Below are positions 856-53,344 of a DNA stretch of 64,000 nt, piece after piece. The stretch's first letter is position 1; each line of letters opens with the position of its first letter. Origin of the DNA: an uncultured Candidatus Babeliaceae bacterium (GTDB taxonomy: Bacteria; Babelota; Babeliae; Babelales; Babelaceae); NCBI GenBank assembly GCA_963704655.1, contig OY969927.1, positions 736,001 through 800,000 of the forward strand, given 5' to 3'. Below the pieces are notes generated by a model. That model searched no databases, was not told the origin of the DNA, and saw only the letters and a list, made by a program, of their open reading frames with translations. A program made the translations under genes and the position numbers.

Positions 856-1581
856 TTAGTTTAACAAACAAGAAAGATTAAGGTACACATTTCGCCAGAA
901 AATCTTACCACTTCCCGGCATAGGCAACTTTTCTAGACAACTATGCAAATAGTTTACTACCGGAAAATACGCACTATTTTTTAAACTTTCTTGCGTCCAA
1001 AAGGTAATAATATCATCAAGTAAAAGGCGTGATTCATAATCTGAAATTTTGGTGCGATCAAGCTGCTGATGAAACTGAATAATATCAGCGATATTTTTTT
1101 GGGTTAACAGACTAAACATCTCACGATACCCATTATCCTGAGCGTCTGACTTAAACTCAGTAACAACACAGCGGGATTTAACCGTTGGCAGAAATTCCTG
1201 CGGCCGATCGGTCAATAATAGCCAATGCCAACCTGCAGGTGGCTCTTCAAGTAATTTTAATAAACTATTGGCGCATGCATCTGATAGCTTTTCTGCTTGT
1301 GTTATCACACAAAAGAATGGTTCGCCTTGTGCGCGGACAATTGCTATTTTTGAAAAAACAACATCCAAATCCGCACGCGAATAGGTTGATTTAATAGTTG
1401 AAAGAATCATATAAGCATGAAACTGCTGATTTTCAATCTGCTTACAGATAGAACAACTTTTACAACCAAGTGAACGACAATATTCCCTTTGCACCAGCGC
1501 AACAGCCTGCGCTTTTAAAATATTCTGTGAACCGGTCCATAATTGTGCAGGGCTAGTTCTGGTTAATGCGCTATGATTCAT
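856..1581 (-). CDS. holB: DNA polymerase III delta' subunit
   Basis: CxxxGCxxCxxC zinc motif, ANSLLKLLEEPP, LPTVKSRC. Start moved to ATG 1581, just after the tmk stop. Confidence 0.9.
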   Translation of the reverse strand: MNHSALTRTSPAQLWTGSQNILKAQAVALVQREYCRSLGCKSCSICKQIENQQFHAYMILSTIKSTYSRADLDVVFSKIAIVRAQGEPFFCVITQAEKLSDACANSLLKLLEEPPAGWHWLLLTDRPQEFLPTVKSRCVVTEFKSDAQDNGYREMFSLLTQKNIADIIQFHQQLDRTKISDYESRLLLDDIITFWTQESLKNSAYFPVVNYLHSCLEKLPMPGSGKIFWRNVYLNLSCLLN

Positions 1582-1582
1582 A

Positions 1583-2206
1583 CTACTTTTTAAATCGCTT
1601 GTTAAGTTCAGCAAGAACTTGTATTGCCAATTCTGTTGGAGGCAGATGTGCATCAACCGTTAAAACATTATCTTTCGTAGCAAAAATCTTTTCAAAACCA
1701 TCAATAACACGCTCAAAAAAAATAGTTTTTTCACGTTCAAAGACGGTTAAAGCCTCATGCCGTTGCGCGATTCGCTTAAAAGCAGTTACCGCATCAATTT
1801 TACTATAGACAATAAGATCAGGGGTTATTCCCTGCATAACCCACTGGGTAACCCGTTCAATAAGGTTAAGATCGATCTCGCGACCATAGCCCTGGTACGC
1901 TCGCGAAGAATCTGCCATGCGGTCAGACAAGATGATTTTACCATCTTCTAATCCGGGCTTAATCACCTGCGTAATATGCTCTGCGCGGTCTGCCGCAAAA
2001 AGCAAGAACTCTGCTTGGGGAGTGAGCGTATATTCATGAACAATCGCTCTGATTTTCTGCCCAGCAGGAGTGCCTCCCGGCTCTTTAGTTAAAATTACCG
2101 GCACATGCAGCGCCTCTAGAGACCTAAAAACAAGCTTACTAAGCGTGCTTTTGCCACTACCATCTATGCCTTCAAACGCGATAAGAAATCCAGATTTTTT
2201 TTCCAT
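1583..2206 (-). CDS. tmk: Thymidylate kinase
   Basis: FEGIDGSGKST P-loop, TKEPGGT, LLFAADR, SDR, AYQG. Confidence 0.97.
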   Translation of the reverse strand: MEKKSGFLIAFEGIDGSGKSTLSKLVFRSLEALHVPVILTKEPGGTPAGQKIRAIVHEYTLTPQAEFLLFAADRAEHITQVIKPGLEDGKIILSDRMADSSRAYQGYGREIDLNLIERVTQWVMQGITPDLIVYSKIDAVTAFKRIAQRHEALTVFEREKTIFFERVIDGFEKIFATKDNVLTVDAHLPPTELAIQVLAELNKRFKK

Positions 2207-2263
2207 ATACTCAAACTATGTTACTATGATATATAATTAGAGTATCATATTTTAGAGATTTTT

Positions 2264-2449
2264 ATGAAAAAAGTTTGGATTAAACCCGGCTGCATCACCT
2301 GCGGCACCTGTGAATTTATCGCACCAGAAGTTTTTGAAGTAACTGATATCTGTCGAGTAAAAGAGAATGCACCTTTAGAAGAATCAGATGCGGCAATTAA
2401 GCAAGCAATTGCACAGTGTCCGGTGAATGTTATTGAAGGACAAGAATAA
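2264..2449 (+). CDS. Ferredoxin
   Basis: CITCGTC...APEVF...CPVNVI. Confidence 0.9.
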   Translation: MKKVWIKPGCITCGTCEFIAPEVFEVTDICRVKENAPLEESDAAIKQAIAQCPVNVIEGQE

Positions 2450-2463
2450 ACTGCGGCGCTCAA

Positions 2464-2522
2464 ATGGTTCGATTTCACTCACCACGAGCGGCCGCTCGCC
2501 CTGAGCATAGTCGAAGGGTGCG
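2464..2522. repeat. Family A inverted doublet, intergenic
   Basis: atggttcgatttcactcaccacgagcgg + ccgctcgccctgagcatagtcgaaggg. Confidence 0.9.
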
Positions 2523-2532
2523 AAAGAGTATA

Positions 2533-4077
2533 ATGGAAGAACTAACTCATTTTACAAGCTTATATAACGAACTTCTTGCACCAGCAGAACCACTTTATGC
2601 CGGGCAGATGCTCGCGCGTTCTGCGCAAAAATGGCCAGAACGCATAGCGCTTATCTGTAATAACGAGCAGATAACTTTTGACCAACTTTACCAAGAGGCA
2701 AGCGCTGTAAGTTATTTTTTGCAAGAACAGGGTATTAAACCACGTGATAAAGTGATGATTCTGTATGAAAATTCGCTTAATTTTTTTCGTGCTTACCATG
2801 GCGCCTGGCAAATGGGTGCGGTGGTTATTCCCGTTAACACCTTTATGCATGAACGCGAACTTGAACATGTTATGCACGACTGCCAGCCTACGGTTCTTAT
2901 CGTTTCAGAAAAACTGAGTGGTAAAGTTTCTCAACTTTATGGCAATGCACGCCTTATTATTACGCAAGAGCAACTTGCTACAATCTGCGCAGAGCCAAAA
3001 AAATTTACGCCAGTAGCGTTACAGCAAAAAGAACTTTCTGTTTTATTATACACTTCAGGAACAACAGGGATGCCCAAAGGGGTTATGCTCAGTTCATATA
3101 ACTGCATATATAATAGTATTCAAGGTATCGCCAAGTTTTCTTCACTTCCTGATGATAAAGTTTTATGCGCCTTGCCGCTGTTTCATAGCTTTATGCAAAA
3201 TGCCTGCGTCTGGAGCAGCTGCTTATTAGGTGCTGCAGTTATAGTGGTATCAAAGATTGACCGCAAAGCATTATTAGAAGGTATTGCACACAAACCTACC
3301 GTTGTTTTAGGAATTCCACAGCTTTTTGGTCTTTTTTGCTTATTAAAAAAGATAGACTTTTCCAGCGTTCGCTTTTTTATTTGTGGCGGGGACGCGTTAC
3401 CGGATAAAATTCGCAAATTCTTTGAACTTATCTATGGCAGGAAACTCTGTAACGGCTACGGGCTCAGTGAAGCATCACCCTTTATCAGTGTGGATCTTGA
3501 TGACACGCGCAGCGAAACCAACACGATTGGCAAGCCGCTTATTGGCATTTCTGTTCAATTACGCGACGAATCTGGCAAAGATATCTCAAAAACTGATATC
3601 GGCACTCTATGGGTAAAAGGTGACAATAACATGCTTGGTTACTATAACGCACCGGAAGCAACCGAAAAAATTTTACACGATGGCTGGCTCAATACAGGAG
3701 ATCTTGCGCGCATTAACAGTCAGGGCAAACTCGTTATCTGTGGCAGAGAAAAAGATCTCATTATTCATAAAGGGATAAAGATCTATCCGCAAGAAGTTGA
3801 AAATTGCCTTATGCAACATGAAGCCGTTCAAGCAGTGGGCGTTATCGGCGCACCAACAGAGAACGACGGCGAGATCCCTATAGCCTATATTGCTGCACGC
3901 GATTATGTAGATAAGCAAAATATACTTTCTGCAGAACTTCTTGAACTGTGTAGGCAGCATCTTGCTCCCTATAAAATCCCGCGCGCTTTTATTATCATCA
4001 AAGAGCTTCCTACAACAACAACAGGCAAAGTGGATAAAAAAGAATTACGGATATTGCATGCCCAAAAATTGAGTTAA
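2533..4077 (+). CDS. Long-chain fatty acid-CoA ligase / AMP-binding protein
   Basis: YTSGTTGMPKG, GYGLSE, TGD, GR.KDLII, GKVDK. Start placed at ATG 2533, after the repeat. Confidence 0.93.
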   Translation: MEELTHFTSLYNELLAPAEPLYAGQMLARSAQKWPERIALICNNEQITFDQLYQEASAVSYFLQEQGIKPRDKVMILYENSLNFFRAYHGAWQMGAVVIPVNTFMHERELEHVMHDCQPTVLIVSEKLSGKVSQLYGNARLIITQEQLATICAEPKKFTPVALQQKELSVLLYTSGTTGMPKGVMLSSYNCIYNSIQGIAKFSSLPDDKVLCALPLFHSFMQNACVWSSCLLGAAVIVVSKIDRKALLEGIAHKPTVVLGIPQLFGLFCLLKKIDFSSVRFFICGGDALPDKIRKFFELIYGRKLCNGYGLSEASPFISVDLDDTRSETNTIGKPLIGISVQLRDESGKDISKTDIGTLWVKGDNNMLGYYNAPEATEKILHDGWLNTGDLARINSQGKLVICGREKDLIIHKGIKIYPQEVENCLMQHEAVQAVGVIGAPTENDGEIPIAYIAARDYVDKQNILSAELLELCRQHLAPYKIPRAFIIIKELPTTTTGKVDKKELRILHAQKLS

Positions 4078-4090
4078 AAAATTACCCCAA

Positions 4091-4151
4091 CACTTCGACT
4101 TCGCTCAGTGTGAGCGGCCGCTCGTGGTGAGCGTAGTCGAATCCATGGCGG
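4091..4151. repeat. Family A inverted doublet, intergenic
   Basis: cacttcgacttcgctcagtgtgagcgg + ccgctcgtggtgagcgtagtcgaatccatg. Confidence 0.92.
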
Positions 4152-4164
4152 CAGCGAGTACATC

Positions 4165-5199
4165 ATGAAACATATAGTACATATCATAACTGGATTACAG
4201 CGTGGTGGCGCAGAGACAGTTTTGGTGACACTGGCAACTGAACTTGCACAAGAACCCTATAACTATAAACAAACTGTTATCTATTTTCATGACGGGCCAT
4301 TACGCGCGTCTTTAGAAAAATTGGGTATTACATGCTACAAAGCTTCTTATATCAGCGCATTTTGGCATATAAAACAACTCAAACCTGATGTAATTCACAG
4401 TTCTTTGTGGTCAGCTAATATTATCACCCGTTTATATGCAAAACTATTTTCTATCCCTGTTTACTGCGCATTACACACAGTAGCGCAACATAGCGGTAAT
4501 TTTAGAAATTATATCGATGCACTGTTCCCGTTTAAACCAACCAGATATATCGCAGTATCAAAAGACGTTAAAGATTCGTATGCCAAATTTTTACCCGCAC
4601 AAAAAATAACGGTGATTGAAAATGGCATACCTATGCCTGCCAACTTGCAAAAACCTGTTAACAAAAAATCAAACGAGTATACCATCGGTACCGTGGGCCG
4701 CTTTGTTGAAGTAAAAAATTATGACGTACTTATTGAGGCATTTGCTTTAATTCACAAAGAATTCCCTCATATAAGGTTAATGCTTGTTGGTCATGGCCCC
4801 CTAGAAGATCAACTTCTTAAACAAGCAGAAGCACTTAAAATTTCAGACGCCGTAACATTTGTTATTAATAAGCCAGCACAAGAGTTTTATAATAAGTTTG
4901 ATTGTTTTGTACAACCATCAAAACATGAGGGGTTATCAATAGCATTGCTTGAAGCATTACAAGCAACAATTCCTGTTATTGTTACCGGCATTAACCATAA
5001 CCATATCATTATCGAACATGAAAAATATGGGCTTGTTATTGAACCAAATTCTGTTTTCGAATTATATCAAGCATTAAAAAGATATATCTTAAACCCCGAG
5101 CTCGCGGATAAATATGCTCAAGATGGCAACAAATTTGTGCAGCAACACTTTTCTGCATGCGCAATGGCAAAAAAATACCATAAGCTATTTTGCAGCTAA
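4165..5199 (+). CDS. GT4-family glycosyltransferase
   Basis: GGAE, VIENG, VGR..K, EGLSIALLEA (EX7E). Confidence 0.92.
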   Translation: MKHIVHIITGLQRGGAETVLVTLATELAQEPYNYKQTVIYFHDGPLRASLEKLGITCYKASYISAFWHIKQLKPDVIHSSLWSANIITRLYAKLFSIPVYCALHTVAQHSGNFRNYIDALFPFKPTRYIAVSKDVKDSYAKFLPAQKITVIENGIPMPANLQKPVNKKSNEYTIGTVGRFVEVKNYDVLIEAFALIHKEFPHIRLMLVGHGPLEDQLLKQAEALKISDAVTFVINKPAQEFYNKFDCFVQPSKHEGLSIALLEALQATIPVIVTGINHNHIIIEHEKYGLVIEPNSVFELYQALKRYILNPELADKYAQDGNKFVQQHFSACAMAKKYHKLFCS

Positions 5200-22682: not shown

Positions 22683-22720
22683 GTATTTACGACCTAACTT
22701 TAAAGAACTTAATAATCCGC

Positions 22721-22786
22721 CCGCATGGATTCGACTACGCTCACCACGAGCGGACGCTCATCCTGAGCCTGTCGAAGGGTTAGCGG
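22721..22786. repeat. Family A inverted doublet, intergenic
   Basis: ccgcatggattcgactacgctcaccacgagcgg + cgctcatcctgagcctgtcgaagggttagcgg. Confidence 0.93.
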
Positions 22787-23782: not shown

Positions 23783-24807
23783 AAAACCTGATTCAACAGA
23801 ACGCTCCACTGGCAGACAAAAACTGGTTTAAAACAGGCGGGCCTGCAGAGTTTTATGCAGAGCCACAAACACCACAAGAATTTGCTGCAGCTATTATATT
23901 CGCACGCGAACACAGTTTGCCTATTACATTATTAGGCGAAGGCGCTAACGTACTTATCAGCGATGCGGGAATTTCTGGGCTTGTTATTCGCCCCGCTTTA
24001 AAAGAAATTATATTCGAAACATGTTCAAACGCCGTGCACCCTGCCTGTCCGTCGAAGCCTTGGCGAAGTCGGAAGTGTTCACCGCAGGTGAATGTATCGA
24101 AGGGGCAGAATATCTGGGTTACAGCGCAGGCAGGCGTGAGTATGCATGAACTTATCGATGCTTGCTTAGCGCAAGGCGCATTAGGCTTAGAAGAATTTAG
24201 TGGGATACCCGGAACAGTTGGCGGGTCAGTTTTTATCAATATCCATTATTTTGAATTTTTATTAAGCAAGTTTATTACTCAAGCGACAGTTATTAACGCC
24301 ACAACCGGCGAGCTGCTTTCAGTTGACCATGCATGGTTTAATTTTAGTTATAACTATTCAATGTTACATGAAAATAATTACTATCTAGTAGATGCTACGT
24401 TTAAACTTAAACGTGCTGAATCGCCTTTAGATGTTGCGTTTGCGCAAGGGCGCAGAAAAGAGATTATTCGCCACAGAGCAGCTCGATACCCAAATGCGGG
24501 AACTTGTGGCAGTTTTTTTAGAAACTTTTATCCGCAAGAAGTTACGCTTGAAAGCTTAGGAAAAAAACTAATCTATGTTGCTTATTATTTAGATAAAATT
24601 GGTGTTAAAGGCGCACTTTCATGCGGCGGTGCAACGGTGTCTTACCAGCATGCAAATATGCTCGTTAACTCTGGCAATGCCTCCACTGCCGACTTAATAA
24701 CTCTTGCACGCACCATGCAAGAAAAAGTCCGTGATGCTTATGGCATTACGCCACAGCCGGAATGCAGATTATTAGGTTTTGAAAAATACCCATTACTATC
24801 CTATTAA
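23770..24807 (+). CDS. murB: UDP-N-acetylmuramate dehydrogenase with in-frame repeat insertion
   Basis: FKTGGPA, GEGANVL, GIPGTVGG, GSFFRN, HANMLVN. Confidence 0.96.
   Translation: MRSLENLIQQNAPLADKNWFKTGGPAEFYAEPQTPQEFAAAIIFAREHSLPITLLGEGANVLISDAGISGLVIRPALKEIIFETCSNAVHPACPSKPWRSRKCSPQVNVSKGQNIWVTAQAGVSMHELIDACLAQGALGLEEFSGIPGTVGGSVFINIHYFEFLLSKFITQATVINATTGELLSVDHAWFNFSYNYSMLHENNYYLVDATFKLKRAESPLDVAFAQGRRKEIIRHRAARYPNAGTCGSFFRNFYPQEVTLESLGKKLIYVAYYLDKIGVKGALSCGGATVSYQHANMLVNSGNASTADLITLARTMQEKVRDAYGITPQPECRLLGFEKYPLLSY
24031..24105 (+). repeat. Family A copy interrupted by family B (24044-24073), in frame in murB
   Basis: gccgtgcaccctg[cctgtccgtcgaagccttggcgaagtcgga]agtgttcaccgcaggtgaatgtatcgaagggg. 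Confidence 0.92.
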
Positions 24808-26309
24808 GCTTCATTAATTTCCTTAATAACAAACATATTAGCGTTATTAAGTTTTTGAAAAGCTTCATTTGCACTAGCATAATTCTCAGGATTTTTATCA
24901 GGATGAACTTTCAAAGACAATATCCTAAATGCTCTATTAACATCATCTATTGTTGCTTTATGAGAAACGCCCAAAATCTCATAAGGATTTTTAGTATTTA
25001 GGATCCGTGTTATCGCTTGATCTTGAGTTTCATTTTTTAATTCAGAACTCATAGAACTTTCAGCTTCAAATGATTTTTTATAAGCATCTTTTAACACATT
25101 CACGTCCCATATTTTGGCGACCTTGCCAAGAGACAAAGTAATTATTTTTTTATCTGAAGGTGAAAATTTTACAGACAAAACTTTATACTCACCGCCAAAT
25201 GGATTAAAGCTTGTCAGAGTCTTGTGAGTTTGTACATCTTGTATAGTAACCGTTTCATTTTCACCTACCAAGATAACCATATCACCATGATATGAAAATA
25301 TTGTCTTGCTTGAATCATAAGCTTCATGTCCAAGAATTTTATAAAGATTGCCTAAAGCTGTACCTATATTGCCATCCCAAACTCCGATAAAGCCATCAGG
25401 TGTGTAGGTAAGAATTTTAGTTCCATCTGCTGAAAAAGCTATAGTCGGTCTATCTTCTTCGGGATTACTTACTTCTTTTTCTTTAACAAGTGTGGCTATC
25501 TTTTGACCTGCCTCTACTGACCATAATACTATCGGGCCATAATACTTTTGCCCTGAAATGGTCTGCACAGCACTGGTGAGTAGTTTTATGCCATCGGGTG
25601 AAAAGTGCGCTATATTTACGTTTGGAAAGGTATGCAAACTGGTGCCGGTAGCAACATCCCATATTTTTGCAACGCTTTGTTTTTTTGCAACATCTTGTGC
25701 TACGGTAAGGAGCTTACTTGCATCAGAAGAAAATTCTATAACACTAACCGCTTTAGGCGTCGCAATTGCCGCCTGCTTTTTGCCTATAGAAGGCATAGCC
25801 CCTGAAGATGTTTCAGGCGCCTTAAGAGCCTCGTAAGCTTTAAGACTAAGTAAGCTTCCCCCTGTTGCAACATCCCAAATTTTAACTATTCCATCTTCTG
25901 CTCCTGTTGCAAGCTTTAGATCATCGTGAGAAAAACTTACTTTATTAATTTTTTTTGGATGAGCATTAAAAGTACTTATCATGCTACCAGTTCCGGTATC
26001 CCACAAAATAACTGTCCCATTTGAAGATCCAGTAACAATTTTTTTACCATCATGCGAAAATGCCGCAACCACAACAGGACTACTATGATCAAGCTTATAT
26101 ATAAGTTTGCCAGTTTGCGCATCAAAAAGATCTGCGCTGTTTCCCTCACCAGGGGTTAAAATTTGCTTTTCATCTGGGCTAAAAAATGCGAATAATATCA
26201 TAGCATTATTTGAAATTGTTACTACAGGTGAAATATCCTGCATCCCACAAAGCTGTTGAGCCATGCCCAGCAAAACAAGAATAAAAACATTAAGAATATT
26301 TTTTTTCAT
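24804..26309 (-). CDS. Signal peptide + WD40 repeats + C-terminal DnaJ domain
   Basis: Multiple FSxDG...KIWD repeats; NPYEILGV...HPDKN. Confidence 0.9.
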   Translation of the reverse strand: MKKNILNVFILVLLGMAQQLCGMQDISPVVTISNNAMILFAFFSPDEKQILTPGEGNSADLFDAQTGKLIYKLDHSSPVVVAAFSHDGKKIVTGSSNGTVILWDTGTGSMISTFNAHPKKINKVSFSHDDLKLATGAEDGIVKIWDVATGGSLLSLKAYEALKAPETSSGAMPSIGKKQAAIATPKAVSVIEFSSDASKLLTVAQDVAKKQSVAKIWDVATGTSLHTFPNVNIAHFSPDGIKLLTSAVQTISGQKYYGPIVLWSVEAGQKIATLVKEKEVSNPEEDRPTIAFSADGTKILTYTPDGFIGVWDGNIGTALGNLYKILGHEAYDSSKTIFSYHGDMVILVGENETVTIQDVQTHKTLTSFNPFGGEYKVLSVKFSPSDKKIITLSLGKVAKIWDVNVLKDAYKKSFEAESSMSSELKNETQDQAITRILNTKNPYEILGVSHKATIDDVNRAFRILSLKVHPDKNPENYASANEAFQKLNNANMFVIKEINEA

Positions 26310-28709: not shown

Positions 28710-31067
28710 TTACCACGTAAAGCGGGCTTCGACTTCACCACCAAAGTCACCACGCTCGTCGCGCATGCCACGAAGCGTTATTTCGTCAGTTGGCTTATAA
28801 GCAACTTCAATAAGTACGTCTTCACTTAAACTAAAGTTTTGTTGAATTAATGCACTTAAATTTTCATTTACTTCTATTGCAAGGGCTGCACGAAGACCGC
28901 CACGGCTTGTCTGGTCACTAAAACGGGGAACAATTTTTACATTTTGCAATGGCCCGAGCCAATTTTTAAATCCGTCAGATTCAGTGAACTCATCTGAAGA
29001 ACCAACGATGAGTTTTTCAACCATCCCCATAGAAGATAACGGCATCACCAACGATAGCGAACTATCTGGCGACCCACCAAATAAAAGGCCTATAATTTGT
29101 TCTTCTTGCAAATTCGGAGTTGACTGAAAGGAAATAACTGGGTTTTGAGCCGTGCCATCAACCGTTAATGTTATTGCATAATTTTTTATTACCGCAGTTG
29201 CACATAGCTCAATTGCCGGGTCGTCACGTTCATTATCAACAAAAAATATTTTTCCATATTGAATCTCAAGCGGCTTATAAGGAAAGTTTAATGTTCCTTG
29301 CAATAACTCAATGTGCCCATAGAGTTGCGGCTGCGCGATAGTACCAAGCACCTGCAATTTAACCTGTGCGCGCGCTTGTAAAAATGGAGTTTTTATTTCA
29401 ACGGGCTCATATGAATGTATCGTTACATCAAGGTCTGCTGTCTGCGCCAGTGGGTGACTTTCAAAAGGGTTAATGGTTGCAGCAACAATATCATTACCTA
29501 CGCCACCAGAAAATGGATTGTTTCGAATGTGACATTTTTTTATCGTACAAATACCTTGTACCTTTGATCTAGATTCTTTTTGGTATTCAAGAACACACGC
29601 ACCAGAAAGCTGTGCAAAAAAATCTTTTGCTCGGTTAATAAAAAAGTCCTGCATCATGATCGGCACATGCGCAGACTGCACGTTATTGTGCGCATCAAAA
29701 CCAAGCGTACTTATGCCACTTATTAATCTGCCACGGTCCGTCTGCAACGTCGTGTCACGTAACAAAAGATACGTTCTATCAGAAGCATATAATGCAGTAG
29801 TATGAAGCGAACGTAAAAAATTATAGGTGTAAGGAATCCGAACATGTAGCCCAGAAAGATCTAGTTCACTCTGCCAATATTTTGTAGTTCGCATGCCCTT
29901 TACAATAAAGGGTGCTTGGTACTGTAACAAATCACCATATGGAGATAGTAACTTGAGATACTCCTGTGGCACTATGTTCTTTTGCAAAAGGGAATAAAAA
30001 AAGTCTGTTGCGCCGCTTACTGTATAGCGACTATCATAATATATCTGTGCTTCTAGTTTATGCTTATTATCATCATGAATAGTTACCTTTACATGGTCAG
30101 GCTGTGAATCATAATCTAAATTAAATAATAACGATTGTAGCGTAATAGATGCTGTGCCCTGAAGATCTGTCGCTACTGATAGCGTGCCGGCAGAAGTTAT
30201 TGCATTAAACTGATACGCATTTTTTGGTGCGATAGTTTTTGAAAGGCTAAGTTCAGTTTTTTGATCATCGTCCTTAAATGAAACTGATACATTATTATCT
30301 TGCACATCAGCACAAATTTTACCCGGGCACCACGAATCTTCTAAAGGATTACGTAACATAATGGTGCCATGTATATCTGTAAACGCCTTTTTTGTGCCCA
30401 TATCAGTAACTCTTTTTATCAATAGCCTTAGGTCCCGAGCAAGAAATTGATTCTTATAAGCGATATGATCTTGGGTAATAGTAAGACCGATATGTTGGTG
30501 ATTATCAATAAGATCTATAGCGCCGCTTACATTACATTCAAGGGCCGTGTCCGCATTAACATGAAGCGTAATTTTAGCATGCGGTATATGCAACTTTTCA
30601 GGAATAATAGGTATCACCATAACCTTTTCACGAATAAATGCCTGAACATGATCCACAATGGCAACCTTACCATCAACAACCTGCGTATCGATTTGCATAT
30701 CACCACAGGTAATAGTAAGAACAACCAGCTTCTCTAAAAAGAGTTTTGCCCAATTAACCGTTACAGTTATACTATCGCTTGTCCAAAACCAATCACGCCC
30801 TTTTTCAGGAAGCACCGTTACGTCAGTTAAAAAGATACTACCATGGAGTATATCTAGACGATCGACTTGCGCATTAAAATCGCAGTCAAAAGCTTTACTT
30901 GTGCCTTGGCAAATAGCTGTTTCAAGATATTCGATTGTTACCGGGTCATGCATAACGATAAACAAAGATGCAAGCACTGTTAAACATATTGCACTTATAA
31001 AAGCAATCAAAAACTGCACAAAAAATATACTATATTGTACCAATAACTTTATTAATAACTTTGCCAT
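28710..31067 (-). CDS. TamB/AsmA-like protein
   Basis: N-terminal anchor, beta-rich body, TamB-like C-terminus (GT..QP.LYG.IEL, STPNL.EEQI..LLFG). Confidence 0.8.
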   Translation of the reverse strand: MAKLLIKLLVQYSIFFVQFLIAFISAICLTVLASLFIVMHDPVTIEYLETAICQGTSKAFDCDFNAQVDRLDILHGSIFLTDVTVLPEKGRDWFWTSDSITVTVNWAKLFLEKLVVLTITCGDMQIDTQVVDGKVAIVDHVQAFIREKVMVIPIIPEKLHIPHAKITLHVNADTALECNVSGAIDLIDNHQHIGLTITQDHIAYKNQFLARDLRLLIKRVTDMGTKKAFTDIHGTIMLRNPLEDSWCPGKICADVQDNNVSVSFKDDDQKTELSLSKTIAPKNAYQFNAITSAGTLSVATDLQGTASITLQSLLFNLDYDSQPDHVKVTIHDDNKHKLEAQIYYDSRYTVSGATDFFYSLLQKNIVPQEYLKLLSPYGDLLQYQAPFIVKGMRTTKYWQSELDLSGLHVRIPYTYNFLRSLHTTALYASDRTYLLLRDTTLQTDRGRLISGISTLGFDAHNNVQSAHVPIMMQDFFINRAKDFFAQLSGACVLEYQKESRSKVQGICTIKKCHIRNNPFSGGVGNDIVAATINPFESHPLAQTADLDVTIHSYEPVEIKTPFLQARAQVKLQVLGTIAQPQLYGHIELLQGTLNFPYKPLEIQYGKIFFVDNERDDPAIELCATAVIKNYAITLTVDGTAQNPVISFQSTPNLQEEQIIGLLFGGSPDSSLSLVMPLSSMGMVEKLIVGSSDEFTESDGFKNWLGPLQNVKIVPRFSDQTSRGGLRAALAIEVNENLSALIQQNFSLSEDVLIEVAYKPTDEITLRGMRDERGDFGGEVEARFTW

Positions 31068-31552
31068 ACACTATTACGATAACGGTAAACACGAATATAA
31101 GAAAATGCTGAAACGGGGGTAGTTAATGCGTACTGTTCATATCCGTCTGTTATATACAGTGTTCCAGACTGTAACGTGCCATCAGGATGCGCACCTATCT
31201 TTTTATCTACAAAAGTAACCATTTGTGTAACAAGCTTTTGTGGTGAAGATGGCGGCCCATATACATCAGGTAATACCCCAAATCTAAAACCATCTTGCAA
31301 AGCATAACGACTGCCGTCATATATTAATGCTGAATTTACTTCATCAATAGTAATTTTTTGCTCTTTTTTTAAGCACGTTGCACGTGTTGCCGCAGTACGC
31401 AGCAACAGGCTCAACACAGCAACATCAGTAGCAAAAGAAGTGCCCTTAACGACATTATAACTTATAAATCCGATTGTAGAACAAACAAGTATTAACGTTA
31501 TTACCAGCATCAACTCAAACAGCATGAACCCTTGTCTGGCCATTCGAGCCAT
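31052..31552 (-). CDS. Type IV pilin / T2SS pseudopilin-like protein
   Basis: MARMARQG|FMLFELMLVI prepilin motif. Its ATG overlaps the upstream stop (TAATG). Confidence 0.85.
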   Translation of the reverse strand: MARMARQGFMLFELMLVITLILVCSTIGFISYNVVKGTSFATDVAVLSLLLRTAATRATCLKKEQKITIDEVNSALIYDGSRYALQDGFRFGVLPDVYGPPSSPQKLVTQMVTFVDKKIGAHPDGTLQSGTLYITDGYEQYALTTPVSAFSYIRVYRYRNSVWQSY

Positions 31553-32044
31553 TATTCGATTCCCTCTTGCGAAACTATGAAATCTGCATCGCAGCCGCTC
31601 GTGGTGAGCGTAGTCGAATCCATGCGGCAAGATTCTTCATTTTTGAATCCACCCCAACCATTACGTATTAATATCTCTTTTTTCTGACGCGTCCAGCGCT
31701 TTATTTTATGCTCTGCCACAAATGCCTCATCGCGTGTTTGAAATAACTCAAAATATTTTAATGTAACGGGTAGTCTATTTAATGTGTAACCCTTATACTT
31801 GCCTTCATTATGTTCGCATACCCTTTGTTCTAAATTATCTGTATGCCCAATATAATAAGAACCATCAGCACATTGAACGATATAAAAATAAAAACCTTCA
31901 TTCATGATTTACCAAATTTTTTTAGGCCGCATGGATTCGACTACGCTCACCACGAGCGGCCTGTTAAAGTGATTTTATTATAGATAAATTACAATTAATA
32001 ATTTTCTGTCTTGGTAGAAAAACATTATTCGATTCCCTCTTGCG
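31550..32044. mobile_element. GIY-YIG cassette with 35-bp inverted repeats (31594-31628, 31926-31960) and 22-bp direct repeats (31550-31571, 32023-32044)
   Basis: IR gccgctcgtggtgagcgtagtcgaatccatgcggc, exact inverse at the other side; DR cattattcgattccctcttgcg twice. Mobility is inferred. Confidence 0.8.
31552..31905 (-). CDS. Small GIY-YIG nuclease (UPF0213/YhbQ-like)
   Basis: YFYIVQCADGSYYIGHT...R..EH...YT..R.P......E......A...E..IK.W.R.KK. Confidence 0.93.
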   Translation of the reverse strand: MNEGFYFYIVQCADGSYYIGHTDNLEQRVCEHNEGKYKGYTLNRLPVTLKYFELFQTRDEAFVAEHKIKRWTRQKKEILIRNGWGGFKNEESCRMDSTTLTTSGCDADFIVSQEGIE

Positions 32045-33734
32045 TAGTAGCAACAGAAAGAACTTCTTCAATAGTAGTAATACCCTTTTTAATTTTCTCG
32101 ATACCATCATGCACCAACAATGTCATACCATCTTTTAAAGCGGCATCTTGTATGAGTGCAGTATCAGCGCGTTCAATAGTTAAACGTGCAATAGCATTAG
32201 TCATAACCATAATTTCAAATAATGGGATTCGGCCACTGTACCCTGTGTTTAAGCATTCATGACAACCGACCGGATTATAGAAAGTTATCTTACCCGCTTC
32301 TTCTGGAGTTATCCCAATACGTTTAAGCACTTGCGGTGTCGGTACATATTTTTGTTTACATGACGGGCACAATTTTCTTACAAGCCGTTGTGCTAAAATA
32401 GCAACAACCGATGACGCGATTAAAAAGGGCTCGATACCCATATCTATAAGTCGGGTTATACTTGCAGCGGAACTATTGGTATGTAACGTTGTTAATACTA
32501 AATGGCCCGTTAATGATGCCTGAATAGCAATTTGCGCCGTCTCTTGGTCACGCGTTTCACCGATCATGACAATGTCAGGATCTTGTCGCAAAATTGAGCG
32601 CAGTGCCGCGGCAAAAGTAAGGCCAATTTTATCCTGCACCTGCACTTGCCCGATGCCTGCCATCTGATATTCAACCGGATCTTCAACGGTTACAATATTA
32701 ACATCAGGACTATTTAATTTATTTAAAACAGCATACAAAGTAGAAGTTTTACCAGAACCGGTAGGCCCTGTTACCAAGATAATACCATTTGGTTGTTCGA
32801 TAGACTGCATTAAAATTCTATAATCTCGGTCGCTTAAGCCAAGTTCATTAAGCTGCTTAAATGTTTTTGCTTTATCCAAAAGACGCATTACAATACGCTC
32901 GCCATACACAGTGGGCAGCACCGAAACACGAATATCAATTGCTCTATCGGCGATTTTAATCTGTATACGGCCATCTTGAGGATGGCGCTTTTCGGCAATA
33001 TTAAGATTTGCCATAATTTTTATACGTGATGCAATTGCGGCTTGCGCACGCTTTGGCGGTGTAATGCTTGGGTATAAAATCCCGTCAATGCGGTAACGAA
33101 CACGCAACTCTTTTTCAAAGGGTTCGATATGAATATCAGAAGCTTCCTGCTTTACGCCTTGGTACAAAATATGGTTCACCAATTTAATAATCGGCGCTTC
33201 ACTTGCCATTCCAAGAATATCTTCTTCATTAATTGCAGCAAAATCTAAAGCTGAAGTAAACTCTTTTTCCTCTTCTAGACCCTCGATAACCTCTTTAGAA
33301 CTTTCATAGGGATAAAATTTATTAATAGCTTCAACAATTATTGCTTGCGGCGCAACAGCAACATCATAGGGAATCTTAAGTAATAAACTGAGTTCATCAA
33401 GTGGTTGAAAATTAAAGGGGTTTGCACACAAAAGCGTAACAGCGTTATCTGTGCCCATTTTGATAGGCATAATAGCCTGCTCACGTAAAAACTTAAGGGG
33501 AATTTGTGAAATAACATCTGGGTCCGTCATCTGCTCGGTTACTTCAGCGACGTAGGGGCACTCAAATTTTTCTGCCAAAGCTTGAGCTAAATGCTGTTCA
33601 CTGACACCAAAATCTCGTGAGCACTTAAAAAAGTTTTGGGATTTTTCATCACAGGCAGCCGAAAGCGCAGCTGATTTTTCTTTATCAAGAAAGTTTTTAT
33701 CTAAAAGAATCTGAACAATACTTTTTTTTATCAT
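32025..33734 (-). CDS. gspE: GspE/PilB secretion or pilus ATPase
   Basis: ASDIHIEP, PQDGR, GPTGSGKT, LRQDPD, CxxC motifs. Confidence 0.93.
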   Translation of the reverse strand: MIKKSIVQILLDKNFLDKEKSAALSAACDEKSQNFFKCSRDFGVSEQHLAQALAEKFECPYVAEVTEQMTDPDVISQIPLKFLREQAIMPIKMGTDNAVTLLCANPFNFQPLDELSLLLKIPYDVAVAPQAIIVEAINKFYPYESSKEVIEGLEEEKEFTSALDFAAINEEDILGMASEAPIIKLVNHILYQGVKQEASDIHIEPFEKELRVRYRIDGILYPSITPPKRAQAAIASRIKIMANLNIAEKRHPQDGRIQIKIADRAIDIRVSVLPTVYGERIVMRLLDKAKTFKQLNELGLSDRDYRILMQSIEQPNGIILVTGPTGSGKTSTLYAVLNKLNSPDVNIVTVEDPVEYQMAGIGQVQVQDKIGLTFAAALRSILRQDPDIVMIGETRDQETAQIAIQASLTGHLVLTTLHTNSSAASITRLIDMGIEPFLIASSVVAILAQRLVRKLCPSCKQKYVPTPQVLKRIGITPEEAGKITFYNPVGCHECLNTGYSGRIPLFEIMVMTNAIARLTIERADTALIQDAALKDGMTLLVHDGIEKIKKGITTIEEVLSVATTQEGIE

Positions 33735-46135: not shown

Positions 46136-48697
46136 ATGGAAAAAAAGTACGATCATCAGATTAATGAACCTAGAATAAAAGCCTTTTGGCACGAAGATGC
46201 CACCTACACCCTAGCACCTGAACAACTAGATGATCGACCTCTTTTTAGTATAGACACTCCCCCGCCTACCGTTTCAGGCTCACTACATATTGGCCATATA
46301 TTTTCCTATACGCATACCGATCTAATCGCGCGCTATAAGCGCATGAGCGGATACGCCGTATTCTATCCATTTGGCTTTGATGATAACGGGTTGCCCACAG
46401 AGCGCTTTGTTGAAAAAAAGAAAAGTATTACGGCTTTTAGCGTGGGCCGTTCAGAATTTATTAAACTCTGTCTTGCAGAAACGGTTGAAGTTGAAAAAAA
46501 ATTCCAAGATTTGTGGCAGACTATCGGCCTTTCAATCGATTGGAACCATTGGTATTCAACCATCGACGCACGAACACGCAAAATCTCACAAGAATCGTTT
46601 ATCGATTTATATAGTAAAAAATATGTCTATCGCAAGCAAGAACCGGCACTTTATTGCACCACTTGTTACACTTCTGTAGCTCAAGCAGAACTTGATGATG
46701 CAGAAAAAGAAACATTCATGACCACTATCGCCTTTACCGGCGCCGATGGTTCGGTGTTGCCTATAGCAACAACACGTCCAGAATTTTTAGGCGCATGCCT
46801 GGCAGTTTTATATAACCCAGAAGATGGCCGTTATAAGCATTTAAAAGGCACCGTTGCAAGCGTGCCACTTTATGGAACTACCGTTCCGTTATTGCCCGAA
46901 GAAACGGTTAAAATAGATAAAGGCACTGGGCTTGTTATGTGTTGCTCTTTTGGAGACACTACGGATATTGAATGGATCAAAAAACTTAATCTCACCATTA
47001 AGCCAATTTTGCAAAAAGATGGCCGCTTTCAGGCTGATTTAGAGTATATTGGTGGCCTAAAAGTTAAACCTGCCCGTGAAAAAATTCTTGCTGAACTTGC
47101 AACACAAAATTTGATTATTGAACAAAAGAAGCTTGTTCATAATGTCAATATTCATGAACGCTGCAAAAATGAAATAGAGTTTTTAAGTTTACCGCAGTGG
47201 TTTATCGATATTAAATCACATAAAGAAGATTTTCTTGCTATGGGCCGCCAAGTTATGTGGCACCCAGAATATATGAAATCACGATATGACAACTGGGTAG
47301 AGCATATCAATTGGGACTGGTGCATTTCGCGTCAGCGCTTTTTTGGAATTCCGTTTCCTTGCTGGCACTGCACAACCTGCGGTACCGTTATTTTTGCAGA
47401 AGAATCACAATTACCGATAGATCCACAAGAAACACCTTACCATAAACCATGCCCGCAATGTGGCAGCACAGAAATTGTACCTGATATGGATGTTATGGAC
47501 ACGTGGAACACGTCGTCATTAACGCCACAGATTGCTGCAGAGATGTTTAAAAAGGCGTACCCAAAAACCCATAAAACGTTATTGCCGATGAGCATGCGCC
47601 CGCAGGCACATGATATTATCCGCACGTGGGCATTTGATACCATTGTTAAATCGTGGATGCGCGACAAACATATTCCATGGCACGATATTGTTATCTCTGG
47701 CCATGTGCAAACAAATGATAAACAAAAGATCTCTAAATCGCAGGGCAATTCACCACTTGAACCAGAAAACTTGCTTAAAACGTACCCTGCCGATGTAATT
47801 CGTTACTGGACCGCCGGTGCTCAGTTAGGAACAGACACCGCGTTTTCTGAAAACCAGTTTAAAATTGGCCAACGATTAATTGTTAAACTCTGGAACGCCT
47901 GTTTATTTATTAAAGAACATGGTACCCCGCTAACCCTTCGACAAGCTCAGGATGAGCGGGTCTTTAGTGCTGAGCATTCGTCGAAGCATCAGGATGAGCG
48001 AGGGGAGGCCGCTCGTGGTGAGCGAAGTCGAATCCATTTGAGCGGACTTGTAATCCCGCAGGACACCATTAATAAATGGATCTTGCACCAAGCGACAGAA
48101 ACATTTGGTGCCTATAAAAATGCATTTGATGATTACCATTTTCATAAAGCGCTTGAAAGTGTCGAAAAGTTCTTTTGGAACGATTTTTGTGATAACTATC
48201 TTGAACTGGTTAAAGATCAATTTTTCAACCCGGCAAACTATAGCCCAGAACTTATAGCAGAAACACAGGCCGTTTTATATAAAGTCGGTTTTGAATTGAT
48301 ACAATGGTATGCGCCGTTCTTGCCGTATATCACCGAAACCATTTATCAAGAATTATATAAAGAAAACTACAAAGTAACATCGCTGCACCAAACAACGTAT
48401 AGTTCAGAACATGACCATTATGATTATGTTCATGAAGTTAAAGTTGTTGAGCTCTTACTGCTGGCAGTACAGCACGTACGTAAAATTAAAACTGATGCTG
48501 CCGTATCGCTTAAAACAGATATCAAGCTTTTAACTATCCACTGCACCGCGGAGCAGGAAAAACAGCTTGCAACGGTTGAAAAAATATTAGCCGGTGTTGC
48601 ACGCGCACAAGAGATACGTTATACAACAGTAAAACTTGAACAAGAAGTTTCACTTATTGATAATCAGGGCATTTACTCAATGGTAATTGATTTATGA
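46136..48697 (+). CDS. valS: Valine-tRNA ligase (short, archaeal-like type) with in-frame repeat insertion
   Basis: DTPPPTVSGSLHIGH, DWCISRQR, PQAHDIIRTW, KISKS. Confidence 0.97.
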   Translation: MEKKYDHQINEPRIKAFWHEDATYTLAPEQLDDRPLFSIDTPPPTVSGSLHIGHIFSYTHTDLIARYKRMSGYAVFYPFGFDDNGLPTERFVEKKKSITAFSVGRSEFIKLCLAETVEVEKKFQDLWQTIGLSIDWNHWYSTIDARTRKISQESFIDLYSKKYVYRKQEPALYCTTCYTSVAQAELDDAEKETFMTTIAFTGADGSVLPIATTRPEFLGACLAVLYNPEDGRYKHLKGTVASVPLYGTTVPLLPEETVKIDKGTGLVMCCSFGDTTDIEWIKKLNLTIKPILQKDGRFQADLEYIGGLKVKPAREKILAELATQNLIIEQKKLVHNVNIHERCKNEIEFLSLPQWFIDIKSHKEDFLAMGRQVMWHPEYMKSRYDNWVEHINWDWCISRQRFFGIPFPCWHCTTCGTVIFAEESQLPIDPQETPYHKPCPQCGSTEIVPDMDVMDTWNTSSLTPQIAAEMFKKAYPKTHKTLLPMSMRPQAHDIIRTWAFDTIVKSWMRDKHIPWHDIVISGHVQTNDKQKISKSQGNSPLEPENLLKTYPADVIRYWTAGAQLGTDTAFSENQFKIGQRLIVKLWNACLFIKEHGTPLTLRQAQDERVFSAEHSSKHQDERGEAARGERSRIHLSGLVIPQDTINKWILHQATETFGAYKNAFDDYHFHKALESVEKFFWNDFCDNYLELVKDQFFNPANYSPELIAETQAVLYKVGFELIQWYAPFLPYITETIYQELYKENYKVTSLHQTTYSSEHDHYDYVHEVKVVELLLLAVQHVRKIKTDAAVSLKTDIKLLTIHCTAEQEKQLATVEKILAGVARAQEIRYTTVKLEQEVSLIDNQGIYSMVIDL
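47927..48045. repeat. Family A composite (three units) in frame in valS
   Basis: ccgctaacccttcgacaagctcaggatgagcgg..tgctgagcattcgtcgaagcatcaggatgagcg..gccgctcgtggtgagcgaagtcgaatccat. Confidence 0.93.
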
Positions 48698-52036: not shown

Positions 52037-53344
52037 TCAAATATGCTGGATAATATCGCGCTGAGGGACTTTAACCTCAATACCTGTGGTCATATTTTTA
52101 ATAGTTGCCATGCCAGAGGCCTGTTCATCGGCCCCAATAAGAATAGCCCATTTTGCGCCCATTTTATCAGCAGCTTTAAACATACTTTTAATAGATGATT
52201 TATCTAAAATAATATCGGCACAGATATGTTCGGCATGAAGCATTTGCACAATCTGCAACCCTAAATTTCTTTGTTCAGCTGTTAAGGGAATAATAACTGT
52301 AAGCGCCGGTTGAGTATCATGACCAACTAAACTTTTTTGCGATTCAAGCAACAACTGTAACCGTTCAAGGCCAACAGCGGCACCGATAGACGGGTAGTCA
52401 TGTTTAGCCCCAATTTGCGTTGCAAGCGAATCATAACGGCCACCGCCACAGAAGGTGTTTTGCGCGCCCAAGCCATCAGAAGAAACAGAAACAAACTCAA
52501 AGACCGTTTTATTGTAATAGTCTAATCCGCGAACCAACGTCGGCTTAACAGAATAGGTTATAGAAAGTTCTTCAAGAATATTTTTTAGCTGTTGCCATTC
52601 AAGTGCAGATTCTTGTGCCATGGTATCAATAATAGTAGGCGCTGTTGCAAAGAGTTTGTGGCAGCTTTCCTGCTTGCAATCAAAAACACGCATAATATTA
52701 GTGTTCATGCGATGCTTACACAAATCACATAATTCTGTAATATGCTTTTCAAGAAACTTTTTAAGAACTTTTTGATATGCTGCACGGTCTTCACGCGTGC
52801 CAAGGTAATTGATTAAAAGAGCATAACCTTCAATTTTTAAAACATTCATAAAAAGGGCATCGAGCATCGCGATAAAAAGGGCATCCTGCAAAATTGAATC
52901 AGAGCCGATTATCTCCATGCTCATTTGATGAAACTGGCGATAGCGCCCTTTTTGTGGGCGTTCATGCCTAAATGCGGGCCCAACAGAAAAAACTTTCCAT
53001 GGCGTATCTTGAATGCCGGCATTAATAAATGCGCGCATAATACTTGCAGTAAGTTCGGGGCGAAGACACATTTTATCTGAATCGGCGCTAGCTGAATCGC
53101 CCCCCCGCTCATCCTGAGCTTGTCGAAGGGTTAGCGCAACGTCTGAAAGTACCCGATACATCTCCTTGCTGACAACGTCAGTTTCAAGGCCCAATGACCG
53201 CTTAAAAAGTTCAAGTGGCTCGATTAAGGGAGTGGATATTTCATGAAAATTATAATCCAAAAGATGTTTTTTTGCCTTTTGGATTATCCAATTATATAAA
53301 GAAAGATCAAGAAAATCTTGTGTACCCTTAATACGCGTAATCAT
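52037..53344 (-). CDS. hisS: Histidine-tRNA ligase with in-frame repeat insertion
   Basis: KGTQD, KEMY, LRPE.TA, FRHERPQKGRYRQF, RGLDYY, GGGRYD. Confidence 0.98.
   Translation of the reverse strand: MITRIKGTQDFLDLSLYNWIIQKAKKHLLDYNFHEISTPLIEPLELFKRSLGLETDVVSKEMYRVLSDVALTLRQAQDERGGDSASADSDKMCLRPELTASIMRAFINAGIQDTPWKVFSVGPAFRHERPQKGRYRQFHQMSMEIIGSDSILQDALFIAMLDALFMNVLKIEGYALLINYLGTREDRAAYQKVLKKFLEKHITELCDLCKHRMNTNIMRVFDCKQESCHKLFATAPTIIDTMAQESALEWQQLKNILEELSITYSVKPTLVRGLDYYNKTVFEFVSVSSDGLGAQNTFCGGGRYDSLATQIGAKHDYPSIGAAVGLERLQLLLESQKSLVGHDTQPALTVIIPLTAEQRNLGLQIVQMLHAEHICADIILDKSSIKSMFKAADKMGAKWAILIGADEQASGMATIKNMTTGIEVKVPQRDIIQHI
53105..53136 (+). repeat. Family A copy in frame in hisS
   Basis: ccgctcatcctgagcttgtcgaagggttagcg, exact reverse complement of valS 47928-47959. 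Confidence 0.95.

Follow-up and report, generated by a model that had tools for sequence, protein, structure and literature searches.

A GIY-YIG nuclease gene with cognate hairpin repeats, probably inserted at a gspE–pilin overlap with duplication of 22 bp of the target

The closest described counterpart of the locus reported here is SsnA of Neisseria meningitidis, a 94-amino-acid single-domain GIY-YIG protein that binds the hairpin repeat NTS (Chenal et al., Nat Commun 2025, PMC11893778). According to that paper, SsnA cuts beside the hairpin, a few nucleotides away, on one strand of single-stranded DNA (ssDNA) only, and homologues from three other species cut their own repeats likewise. Most SsnA homologues are flanked by such repeats, and the NTS-ssnA-NTS architecture is called 'identical to' that of an insertion sequence (IS), with IS200/IS605 cited in the Discussion; the Ssn family is defined there by CDD cd10448. 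The terms 'direct repeat' and 'target site' do not appear in the main text, which thus reports no insertion footprint. It was the sole relevant paper found in searches of the literature on GIY-YIG proteins with REP/RAYT, UPF0213, palindromic repeats, Dependentiae and SsnA; in a 2026 preprint, SsnA loci serve as a benchmark only. Here we analyse a stretch of 64,000 nucleotides (the window) from an uncultured Candidatus Babeliaceae bacterium (contig OY969927.1, positions 736,001 to 800,000), in which a GIY-YIG nuclease gene and two inverted hairpin repeats lie between gspE and a prepilin-like gene, bounded by a 22-bp direct repeat. We think it probable that a module of nuclease plus cognate repeats was inserted once into the gspE–pilin overlap, duplicating 22 bp of the target. 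The cassette and the two genes that it separates are laid out as follows, in window coordinates.

32025–33734, minus strand: gspE, encoding the type II secretion ATPase (TIGR02533, 652 bits against a cut-off of 630; Pfam T2SSE and MshEN).
32023–32044, minus strand: copy A of the direct repeat, with the last five gspE codons (QEGIE) and their TAA stop, overlapped by a duplicated ATG (TAATG).
31961–32022: unique AT-rich flank of 62 bp (19% GC) between copy A and the upstream arm.
31926–31960: upstream inverted-repeat arm, a type-1 hairpin-repeat unit (coding strand CCGCTC...GTCGAATCC).
31552–31905, minus strand: Ssn-like minimal GIY-YIG open reading frame (ORF) of 117 amino acids, with the domain in residues 1–89 (31639–31905).
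31555–31638, minus strand: read-through tail of the nuclease ORF (residues 90–117), which traverses the downstream arm; its stop is the duplicated gspE stop at 31552–31554.
31594–31628: downstream inverted-repeat arm within the ORF tail, a type-1 unit (coding strand GGATTCGAC...GAGCGG).
31572–31593: unique flank of 22 bp between the downstream arm and copy B.
31550–31571, minus strand: copy B of the direct repeat, with the end of the read-through tail (QEGIE*), a GAGG Shine-Dalgarno (SD)-like site and the ATG of the prepilin-like gene.
31052–31552, minus strand: prepilin/pseudopilin-like gene of 166 amino acids (start MARMARQGFMLFELMLV...), conserved right after gspE in relatives.

The direct repeat is exact (31550–31571 and 32023–32044 on the plus strand, 473 bp from start to start), and because the bases neighbouring the two copies differ on either side, it is exactly 22 bp long. 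The two copies are far beyond chance: no third was found in the window even at 3 mismatches, two 22-mer matches were obtained in 0 of 100 dinucleotide shuffles, and random pairs of 80-nt flanks from the window (n = 2000) usually had a longest common word of 6–8 nt, with a maximum of 15 nt reached once. The 22-mer has neither dyad symmetry nor a fold. Between the copies lie 451 bp, which hold the 117-amino-acid ORF between perfect 35-nt inverted repeats (100% complementary, 297 nt between them). The gaps from direct to inverted repeat are 22 bp and 62 bp; the upstream arm ends 20 nt before the nuclease ATG and the downstream arm falls within the 3' tail of the ORF. Read on the minus strand, GspE ends in ...ATTQEGIE* and the nuclease ORF in ...VSQEGIE*. 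The TAATG overlap of stop and start is present in both copies, and the lower ATG starts the prepilin-like ORF. An earlier note on this DNA had described just such a pair of copies 473 bp apart, each reading QEGIE, stop and overlapping ATG, with the nuclease running through its downstream inverted repeat onto the other copy and with gaps of 22 and 62 bp; all of this was borne out, with two copies only.

The content of the 22 bp accounts for the survival of both genes. They contain five gspE codons with the stop, and GAGG 9–12 nt before the ATG of the pilin gene, so that both the end of gspE and the SD-like site and start of the pilin gene are held within the repeat. An SD-like 4-mer at −20 to −4 precedes 18 of 56 window ORFs as against 7.6% of random 17-mers, and the pilin GAGG qualifies. 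Had fewer than 22 bp been duplicated, either gspE would lack its end or the pilin gene its ribosome-binding site. The duplicated ATG at the gspE stop now starts only a 15-codon small ORF (31978–32025, minus strand; MFFYQDRKLLIVIYL) in the 62-bp flank.

A scan of genome contigs with GspE yielded 80 related loci, the genome of the window itself not among them. The best loci have 54–71% GspE identity (closest 70–71%) and come largely from Babeliales/Dependentiae assemblies. Their origin and that of the closest named nuclease homologue (below) place the window in that phylum. In 8 of the 15 best (L001, L002, L003, L004, L006, L007, L009 and L012) the pilin gene sits at or overlaps the gspE stop with no cassette, and none of the 80 loci has a GIY-YIG match at E ≤ 1e-3. 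The L004 junction reads ...SQDVEV-TAATG-GCG..., a one-base overlap of gspE stop and pilin ATG followed by MARKGFMLLEL, which is the product expected from removing one repeat unit in the window. The GspE proteins of relatives end in SQEGVSV, SQDGVAV or SQDVEV; QEGIE is therefore native, and the repeat is target sequence present twice and not sequence borne by the element. The earlier note had held that the cassette entered at the gspE stop and pilin start without damaging either gene, that removing one unit would restore a gspE-TAATG-pilin junction, and that alignment to related genomes should look for an empty site: both ORFs are whole, L004 carries exactly the predicted overlap, and empty junctions were found. 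The gspE–pilin junction is not fixed within the group. Among the other best loci, six of the 15 have no pilin homologue, and in L015 the pilin homologue lies 3.2 kb away across a run of N. This last locus (1157–4311), which has the highest GspE identity (71%, from a partial gene), carries other ORFs as well as the N run between the two genes.

Insertion in the lineage of the window is the simplest reading of these sites. The opposite order of events, an ancestral module that was deleted precisely in the relatives by recombination between the 22-bp repeats, is quite improbable. Direct repeats of 22 bp lying 473 bp apart can support precise deletion, and every empty site is indeed from a distant relative. 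Under this history, however, all 8 syntenic relatives must have lost the module precisely and each on its own, and the 22-bp and 35-nt repeats must have stayed 100% identical despite 30–46% divergence of the GspE protein. The repeat family is, moreover, nearly absent from the relatives, with 3 loose-motif matches in L001–L017 against 15 in the window. The identity of the repeats (22/22 and 35/35) argues against a great age of the insertion; both 22-bp copies are under selection, and the arms are possibly kept alike by the nuclease system.

An assembly artefact, in which a repeat-bounded segment was misplaced by the assembler, seems to us very improbable. In its favour, the genome is apparently known from assemblies only. 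Two false joins at one 22-mer would nevertheless be needed, yet the three ORFs are open and correctly phased, and the identical 117-amino-acid protein, including its junction-spanning tail, occurs on 3 contigs that may be copies of one assembly, the longest of 1,307,222 bp (1.3 Mb).

The inverted repeats around the nuclease gene are two copies of a GC-rich, genome-wide hairpin repeat and not IS-like element ends. The arm sequence recurs at 4117–4151, 22720–22754 and 48006–48037, and in diverged form at 2466–2493. A loose unit motif (TCGA...C-T/A-C...GAGCG) finds 15 copies in the 64 kb; a strict one (TTCGAC-N2-3-GCTCA-N3-5-GA-R-CG) finds 13, and 0 in 100 shuffles. Six copies, both arms among them, are of type 1 (CACCAC loop) and seven of type 2 (CAGGAT loop). 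When the six type-1 copies are aligned, their similarity is limited to about 30 nt. Outside the cassette, a type-1 unit is immediately followed by a second unit in inverted orientation, forming a REPIN-like doublet. Most units of the window lie in such doublets and others singly, and the doublets fold to long hairpins as ssDNA. Since the arms are copies of a dispersed repeat around a nuclease gene, the direct repeats need not abut them. The inverted repeats that the earlier note reported are real; a reading of them as ends of an IS-like element was not upheld. A classical IS would also bring a transposase, and the sole domain-bearing ORF of the cassette is the GIY-YIG one, with no DDE, HUH, serine or tyrosine transposase; nor do terminal inverted repeats abut the target duplication, the arms lying 22 and 62 bp inside it behind unique flanks. 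We therefore rejected the cassette as an IS, on the lack of a transposase and on arms that are dispersed repeats not adjoining the duplication.

The flanks and the base composition of the cassette were analysed in the same way. The 62-bp and 22-bp flanks match nothing elsewhere in the window. GC content is 33.7% in the nuclease domain (31639–31905) and 19.4% in the 62-bp flank, with 39.8% in gspE, 38.9% in the pilin gene and 38.9% in the whole window. Promoter-like sites in the cassette gave no signal (2 against 5.4 expected), and there are 0 terminator-like sites. As RNA, both arms pair as a 35-bp stem around the nuclease ORF (minimum free energy −149 kcal/mol, z −6.9). This modelled stem is a possible RNase III substrate and could part the gspE and pilin messages.

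The nuclease ORF matches Pfam GIY-YIG (PF01541, 6e-17, residues 5–76) and carries no other domain. Its closest solved structures are the UPF0213 proteins 1ywl (E 6e-15) and 1zg2 (E 1e-13), classed as the minimal bacterial Slx1-like form by Dunin-Horkawicz et al. (PMC1564403). These bacterial Slx1-like/UPF0213 proteins (YazA, YhbQ; 1ywl, 1zg2) have the same minimal domain and are the nearest solved relatives by sequence. The window nuclease keeps every one of the 17 columns that are invariant among 20 aligned sequences. Its closest named homologue is from candidate division TM6, and by tblastn the gene has no second copy in the window. At 48% identity, B. subtilis yazA is among its relatives; the Bacillus and Listeria yazA-type genes among the plasmid matches appear to be of housekeeping type.

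GIY-YIG is a classical homing-endonuclease fold, and phage Seg-type endonucleases sit between conserved genes, as the window nuclease does. A free-standing endonuclease might accordingly have cut an empty junction, and repair of the double-strand break, with a relative that had the cassette as donor, would have copied it in. We regard this as highly improbable. Homing copies via flanking homology and leaves no target duplication; the nuclease is a single domain without a DNA-binding extension, with homologues of 87–99 amino acids, and neither a DNA-binding region (NUMOD or similar) nor a site free of target duplication, as homing would have it, was found at this locus. The NCBIfam model of group I intron endonucleases, TIGR01453, scores 14 bits against a cut-off of 56. 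An Rfam scan gave a single match, to a snoRNA, at E 0.4 and under the gathering score, and a group I intron or other RNA family was ruled out for want of a match above that score. The arms, lastly, are dispersed repeats, a feature of Ssn/RAYT-type systems instead.

Homologues of 87–99 amino acids end at ...GF-KK, where the window ORF has no stop; it continues for 28 codons, crosses the downstream arm and then the 22-bp flank, and finishes with the duplicated QEGIE*. Stops are present in both other frames of this tail. Random 29-codon frames in the window are open in 29% of cases, and an open tail in the very frame that uses the duplicated stop would therefore arise about 1 time in 10 by chance. 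The open tail in the coupling frame is at most suggestive of selection for restored coupling.

With the Ssn systems (PMC11893778) the locus shares three features as described there. Both have a single-domain GIY-YIG protein of about 90–100 amino acids (about 94 without a DNA-binding extension in Ssn; here an 89-amino-acid domain, the rest being read-through), inverted hairpin repeats 5' and 3' of the gene (here the 35-nt arms), and many dispersed copies of the repeat (here 13 strict or 15 loose, counted in the 64-kb window). Differences lie in the repeat itself, which in the window reads TTCGAC-N2-3-GCTCA-N3-5-GAGCG, and in the 22-bp duplication together with the empty site in relatives. Read by its architecture, the module is Ssn-like, with ssDNA cleavage as the predicted activity. 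We rejected the repeat as an SRM by the published definition, since that motif finds nothing in the window. A literature search with the repeat sequence strings matched no paper.

RAYT genes and their REP/REPIN repeats offer a second comparison (PMC2817692, PMC3116915, PMC3337134). As those papers describe them, a single-copy nuclease-type gene stands between inverted GC-rich palindromic repeats, and the repeats are dispersed intergenically, often as inverted doublets, as in the window at 2466–2520, 4090–4151 and 22720–22780. RAYTs are, however, HUH/Y1 transposase homologues in these accounts, whereas the window protein is GIY-YIG only, with no known strand-transfer chemistry; Pfam and NCBIfam gave no HUH/Y1 match in the nuclease. 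IS200/IS605 elements are alike in being small, in carrying hairpins inside rather than at their ends and in acting on ssDNA. They make no target duplication and use a Y1 transposase, whereas the window has a 22-bp duplication and a GIY-YIG nuclease.

A profile search with the nuclease returned at least 7981 clusters at E ≤ 1e-5 among 8000 candidates scored. By tblastn of plasmid records, 10 match the window nuclease and 3 match its Sphingomonas homologue, and three loci were inspected (L081–L083). In the first (Sphingomonas parapaucimobilis NZ_CP155752.1), a homologue of 47% identity is flanked by units of the same kind (TTCGACTTCGCTCAG...GAACG), oriented relative to the gene as in the window. 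The ORF of this homologue likewise reads across the downstream unit, and its stop overlaps the next annotated gene as GTGA. The homologue (1340–1830) lies between nrdR and an RNA methyltransferase gene, and GAGTGA (6 nt) stands at both the nrdR stop and the nuclease stop, 472 bp apart, which is too short for a duplication call. A search for an empty nrdR–methyltransferase site found no other Sphingomonas record, and the Paracoccus neighbourhood differs. The strict motif has 13 matches in the window, 5 in the 3.3 kb of L081 and a single one across the remaining 82 loci (about 924 kb): nuclease clade and repeat type go together. The Methylobacterium locus (L082) shows the same layout with another hairpin unit, and its 27-nt repeat is the repeat unit itself. 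The third (L083, Sphingomonas paeninsulae NZ_CP032828.1, 1495–1773) is a copy in decay, in which an in-frame TAA falls on the YIG tyrosine; it stands between rnc and era, genes that are usually adjacent.

The tails of further homologues were analysed in 123 sequences, of which 113 have both anchor motifs. Extended ends are present in 26 of the 113, and 14 of these extensions translate repeat units (PSTSSGRT, TLRQAQG..., FDRLRT); by eye, several more are near variants of repeat units.

Taken as a single insertion, the locus can be given a plausible course of events. The module, together with the unique 62 and 22 bp of flank, would have entered the one-base TAATG overlap of gspE and the pilin gene; we favour one illegitimate event, which brought in 451 bp made up of the module and its native flanks. 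The 22 bp would have arisen at insertion, through a staggered break that was filled in or a template switch during replication. Each gene would thereby keep a full copy of what it needs, gspE its last five codons and stop, the pilin gene its GAGG and ATG; the event may have been retained by selection because, by chance, the duplicated stretch covered both signals. The nuclease is expected to cut the flanking repeat as ssDNA. Because its ORF ends on the duplicated TAA, ribosomes on it would terminate at the pilin start, as gspE ribosomes did before, and coupling would be retained. The Neisseria nuclease cuts a few nucleotides from its hairpin and not 22 or 62 nt away (PMC11893778, as described there), and the boundaries of the insert are therefore unlikely to be nuclease cuts. 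We also considered a target chosen for its likeness to the repeat arm and rejected it: the alignment score of 14 is equalled by 11.8% of 5000 random 62-nt windows (p ~0.12).

The 22 bp might instead be the att core of a small circular element that integrated at the gspE 3' end through a recombinase acting in trans, as a CIME-like cassette. The repeat has no mismatch and, at 22 bp, is long for a target duplication; like att cores at the ends of genes, it gives the target gene back its 3' end. Integration at a gene 3' end with an element-borne replacement copy is a classical pattern. None of the 59 window ORFs scanned belongs to an integrase, transposase or recombinase family, however, and the element has space for one 89-amino-acid nuclease only. 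The content of the 22-mer is native host sequence (the GspE C-terminus, and a pilin start as in L004), so the element must have carried it beforehand, and an att core is at odds with a 22-mer lacking both dyad symmetry and fold. We hold site-specific integration to be quite improbable. The earlier note had left the choice between a long target duplication and an att-like core, and sequence alone would not tell the two apart.

Several observations weigh against the single insertion that we favour. The earlier note called it recent; the insertion itself is upheld by the empty relatives, and 'recent' is not established, because the empty sites come only from relatives of 54–71% GspE identity, none of the same species or genus. 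A search for similar direct repeats at other copies of the cassette, as the note had suggested, gave a negative answer: none of the 3 further loci with homologues shows a comparable non-repeat duplication. At the 9 remaining repeat clusters of the window, the longest flanking direct repeat is 8 nt, within the null. A classical IS makes a short target duplication of fixed length; here target sequence is duplicated over 22 bp, and the duplication looks like a single occurrence rather than a family trait. The published SRM motif, which does match two NTS consensus instances, has 0 matches in the window and in L081–L083. A GIY-YIG nuclease only cuts. We know of no transposase-like activity in this nuclease family, nor of a bacterial transposition system with a 22-bp target duplication.

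A bolder version of the same history would make the module an autonomous mobile element of an undescribed kind, its minimal GIY-YIG ssDNA nuclease mobilising itself and its hairpins, with a second repeat clade, overlooked by the published SRM motif, present in more than one phylum. We consider this unlikely. Staggered single-strand breaks, or template switches at a fork, would then let the insert in and yield long duplications of variable length. If true, the locus would be the first direct transposition footprint of an Ssn-type module, and the nuclease–repeat pair would also explain the in-frame hairpins in two tRNA-synthetase genes, which are listed here with the other repeat units of the window.

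2466–2520: gene-less inverted doublet, a type-1-like unit and a variant unit.
4090–4151: gene-less inverted doublet; as ssDNA, 4088–4152 folds to a long hairpin (−16.6 kcal/mol, z −3.35).
22720–22780: gene-less inverted doublet, a type-1 and a type-2 unit.
47927–48045: three repeat units, in frame, inside a class I aminoacyl-tRNA synthetase ORF (46136–48697, plus strand).
53106–53126: type-2 unit, in frame, inside the histidyl-tRNA synthetase ORF (52037–53344, minus strand).

In the class I synthetase the units add about 40 residues (PLTLRQAQDER...GERSRIHLSGL), which lie after one and before the other of two domains, catalytic and anticodon-binding, and alignment to solved isoleucyl-tRNA synthetase breaks exactly at the repeat units. 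The type-2 unit of the histidyl-tRNA synthetase falls within about 18 residues (LTLRQAQDERG...) that the solved enzyme 4e51 lacks, and has the same frame and orientation as the units of the class I enzyme. Rickettsia palindromic elements are likewise short palindromes tolerated in frame in essential protein-coding genes. They resemble the units in these two synthetases in this respect and differ in sequence family; to our knowledge they are not tied to a flanked nuclease gene.

Further observations concern the pilin gene and its surroundings. The prepilin-like ORF has weak prepilin N-terminus matches only (NF007862, 1.8e-4, under cut-off); its N-terminus, of the G-F/Y-x-L-x-E type, is kept directly 3' of gspE in relatives. 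It begins with MAR-MAR (31535–31552, minus strand), two 9-nt units that are alike at 7 of 9 positions, each led by ATG, right after the 22-bp repeat, where L004 has a single MARKGF. MAR-MAR could be a small tandem duplication or a junction scar, and the second ATG may be the ancestral start. Downstream lies one more gene of the cluster.

28710–31067, minus strand: tamB-like gene, overlapping the end of the pilin gene and next after the pilin gene in L001, L003, L007 and L009.

In two relatives, tandem paralogous ORFs with near-identical N-termini (MKNLKRKIIFILSLAFGLNF... and MEEYMKKSIISLLLCLSV...) lie 3' of gspE (L013, 7880–13023; L002, 7441–9349). Elsewhere in the window, a 501-amino-acid ORF (24804–26309, minus strand) carries WD40 repeats and, at its C-terminus, a DnaJ domain, an architecture like that of eukaryotic proteins.

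What appears to be new here is a repeat type missed by the published motif, and an insertion footprint that we did not find reported in the literature searched. The description of SsnA likened NTS-ssnA-NTS to an insertion sequence, and its main text gives no evidence of module movement (PMC11893778). The present locus gives a before-and-after picture, with an empty gspE-TAATG-pilin junction in relatives and a filled one with a perfect target duplication here; the duplication, if confirmed, would be a handle on the insertion mechanism. Dependentiae and Sphingomonas both have this repeat type, as do many metagenomic homologues in their tails, and the known extent of such systems may therefore be underestimated. 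Two translationally coupled genes can take up an insert without effect when the duplication carries the upstream stop together with the downstream ribosome-binding site and start, and when the inserted ORF takes over the coupling. For modules of a nuclease and its repeats, the locus is a rare footprint of how they may move.

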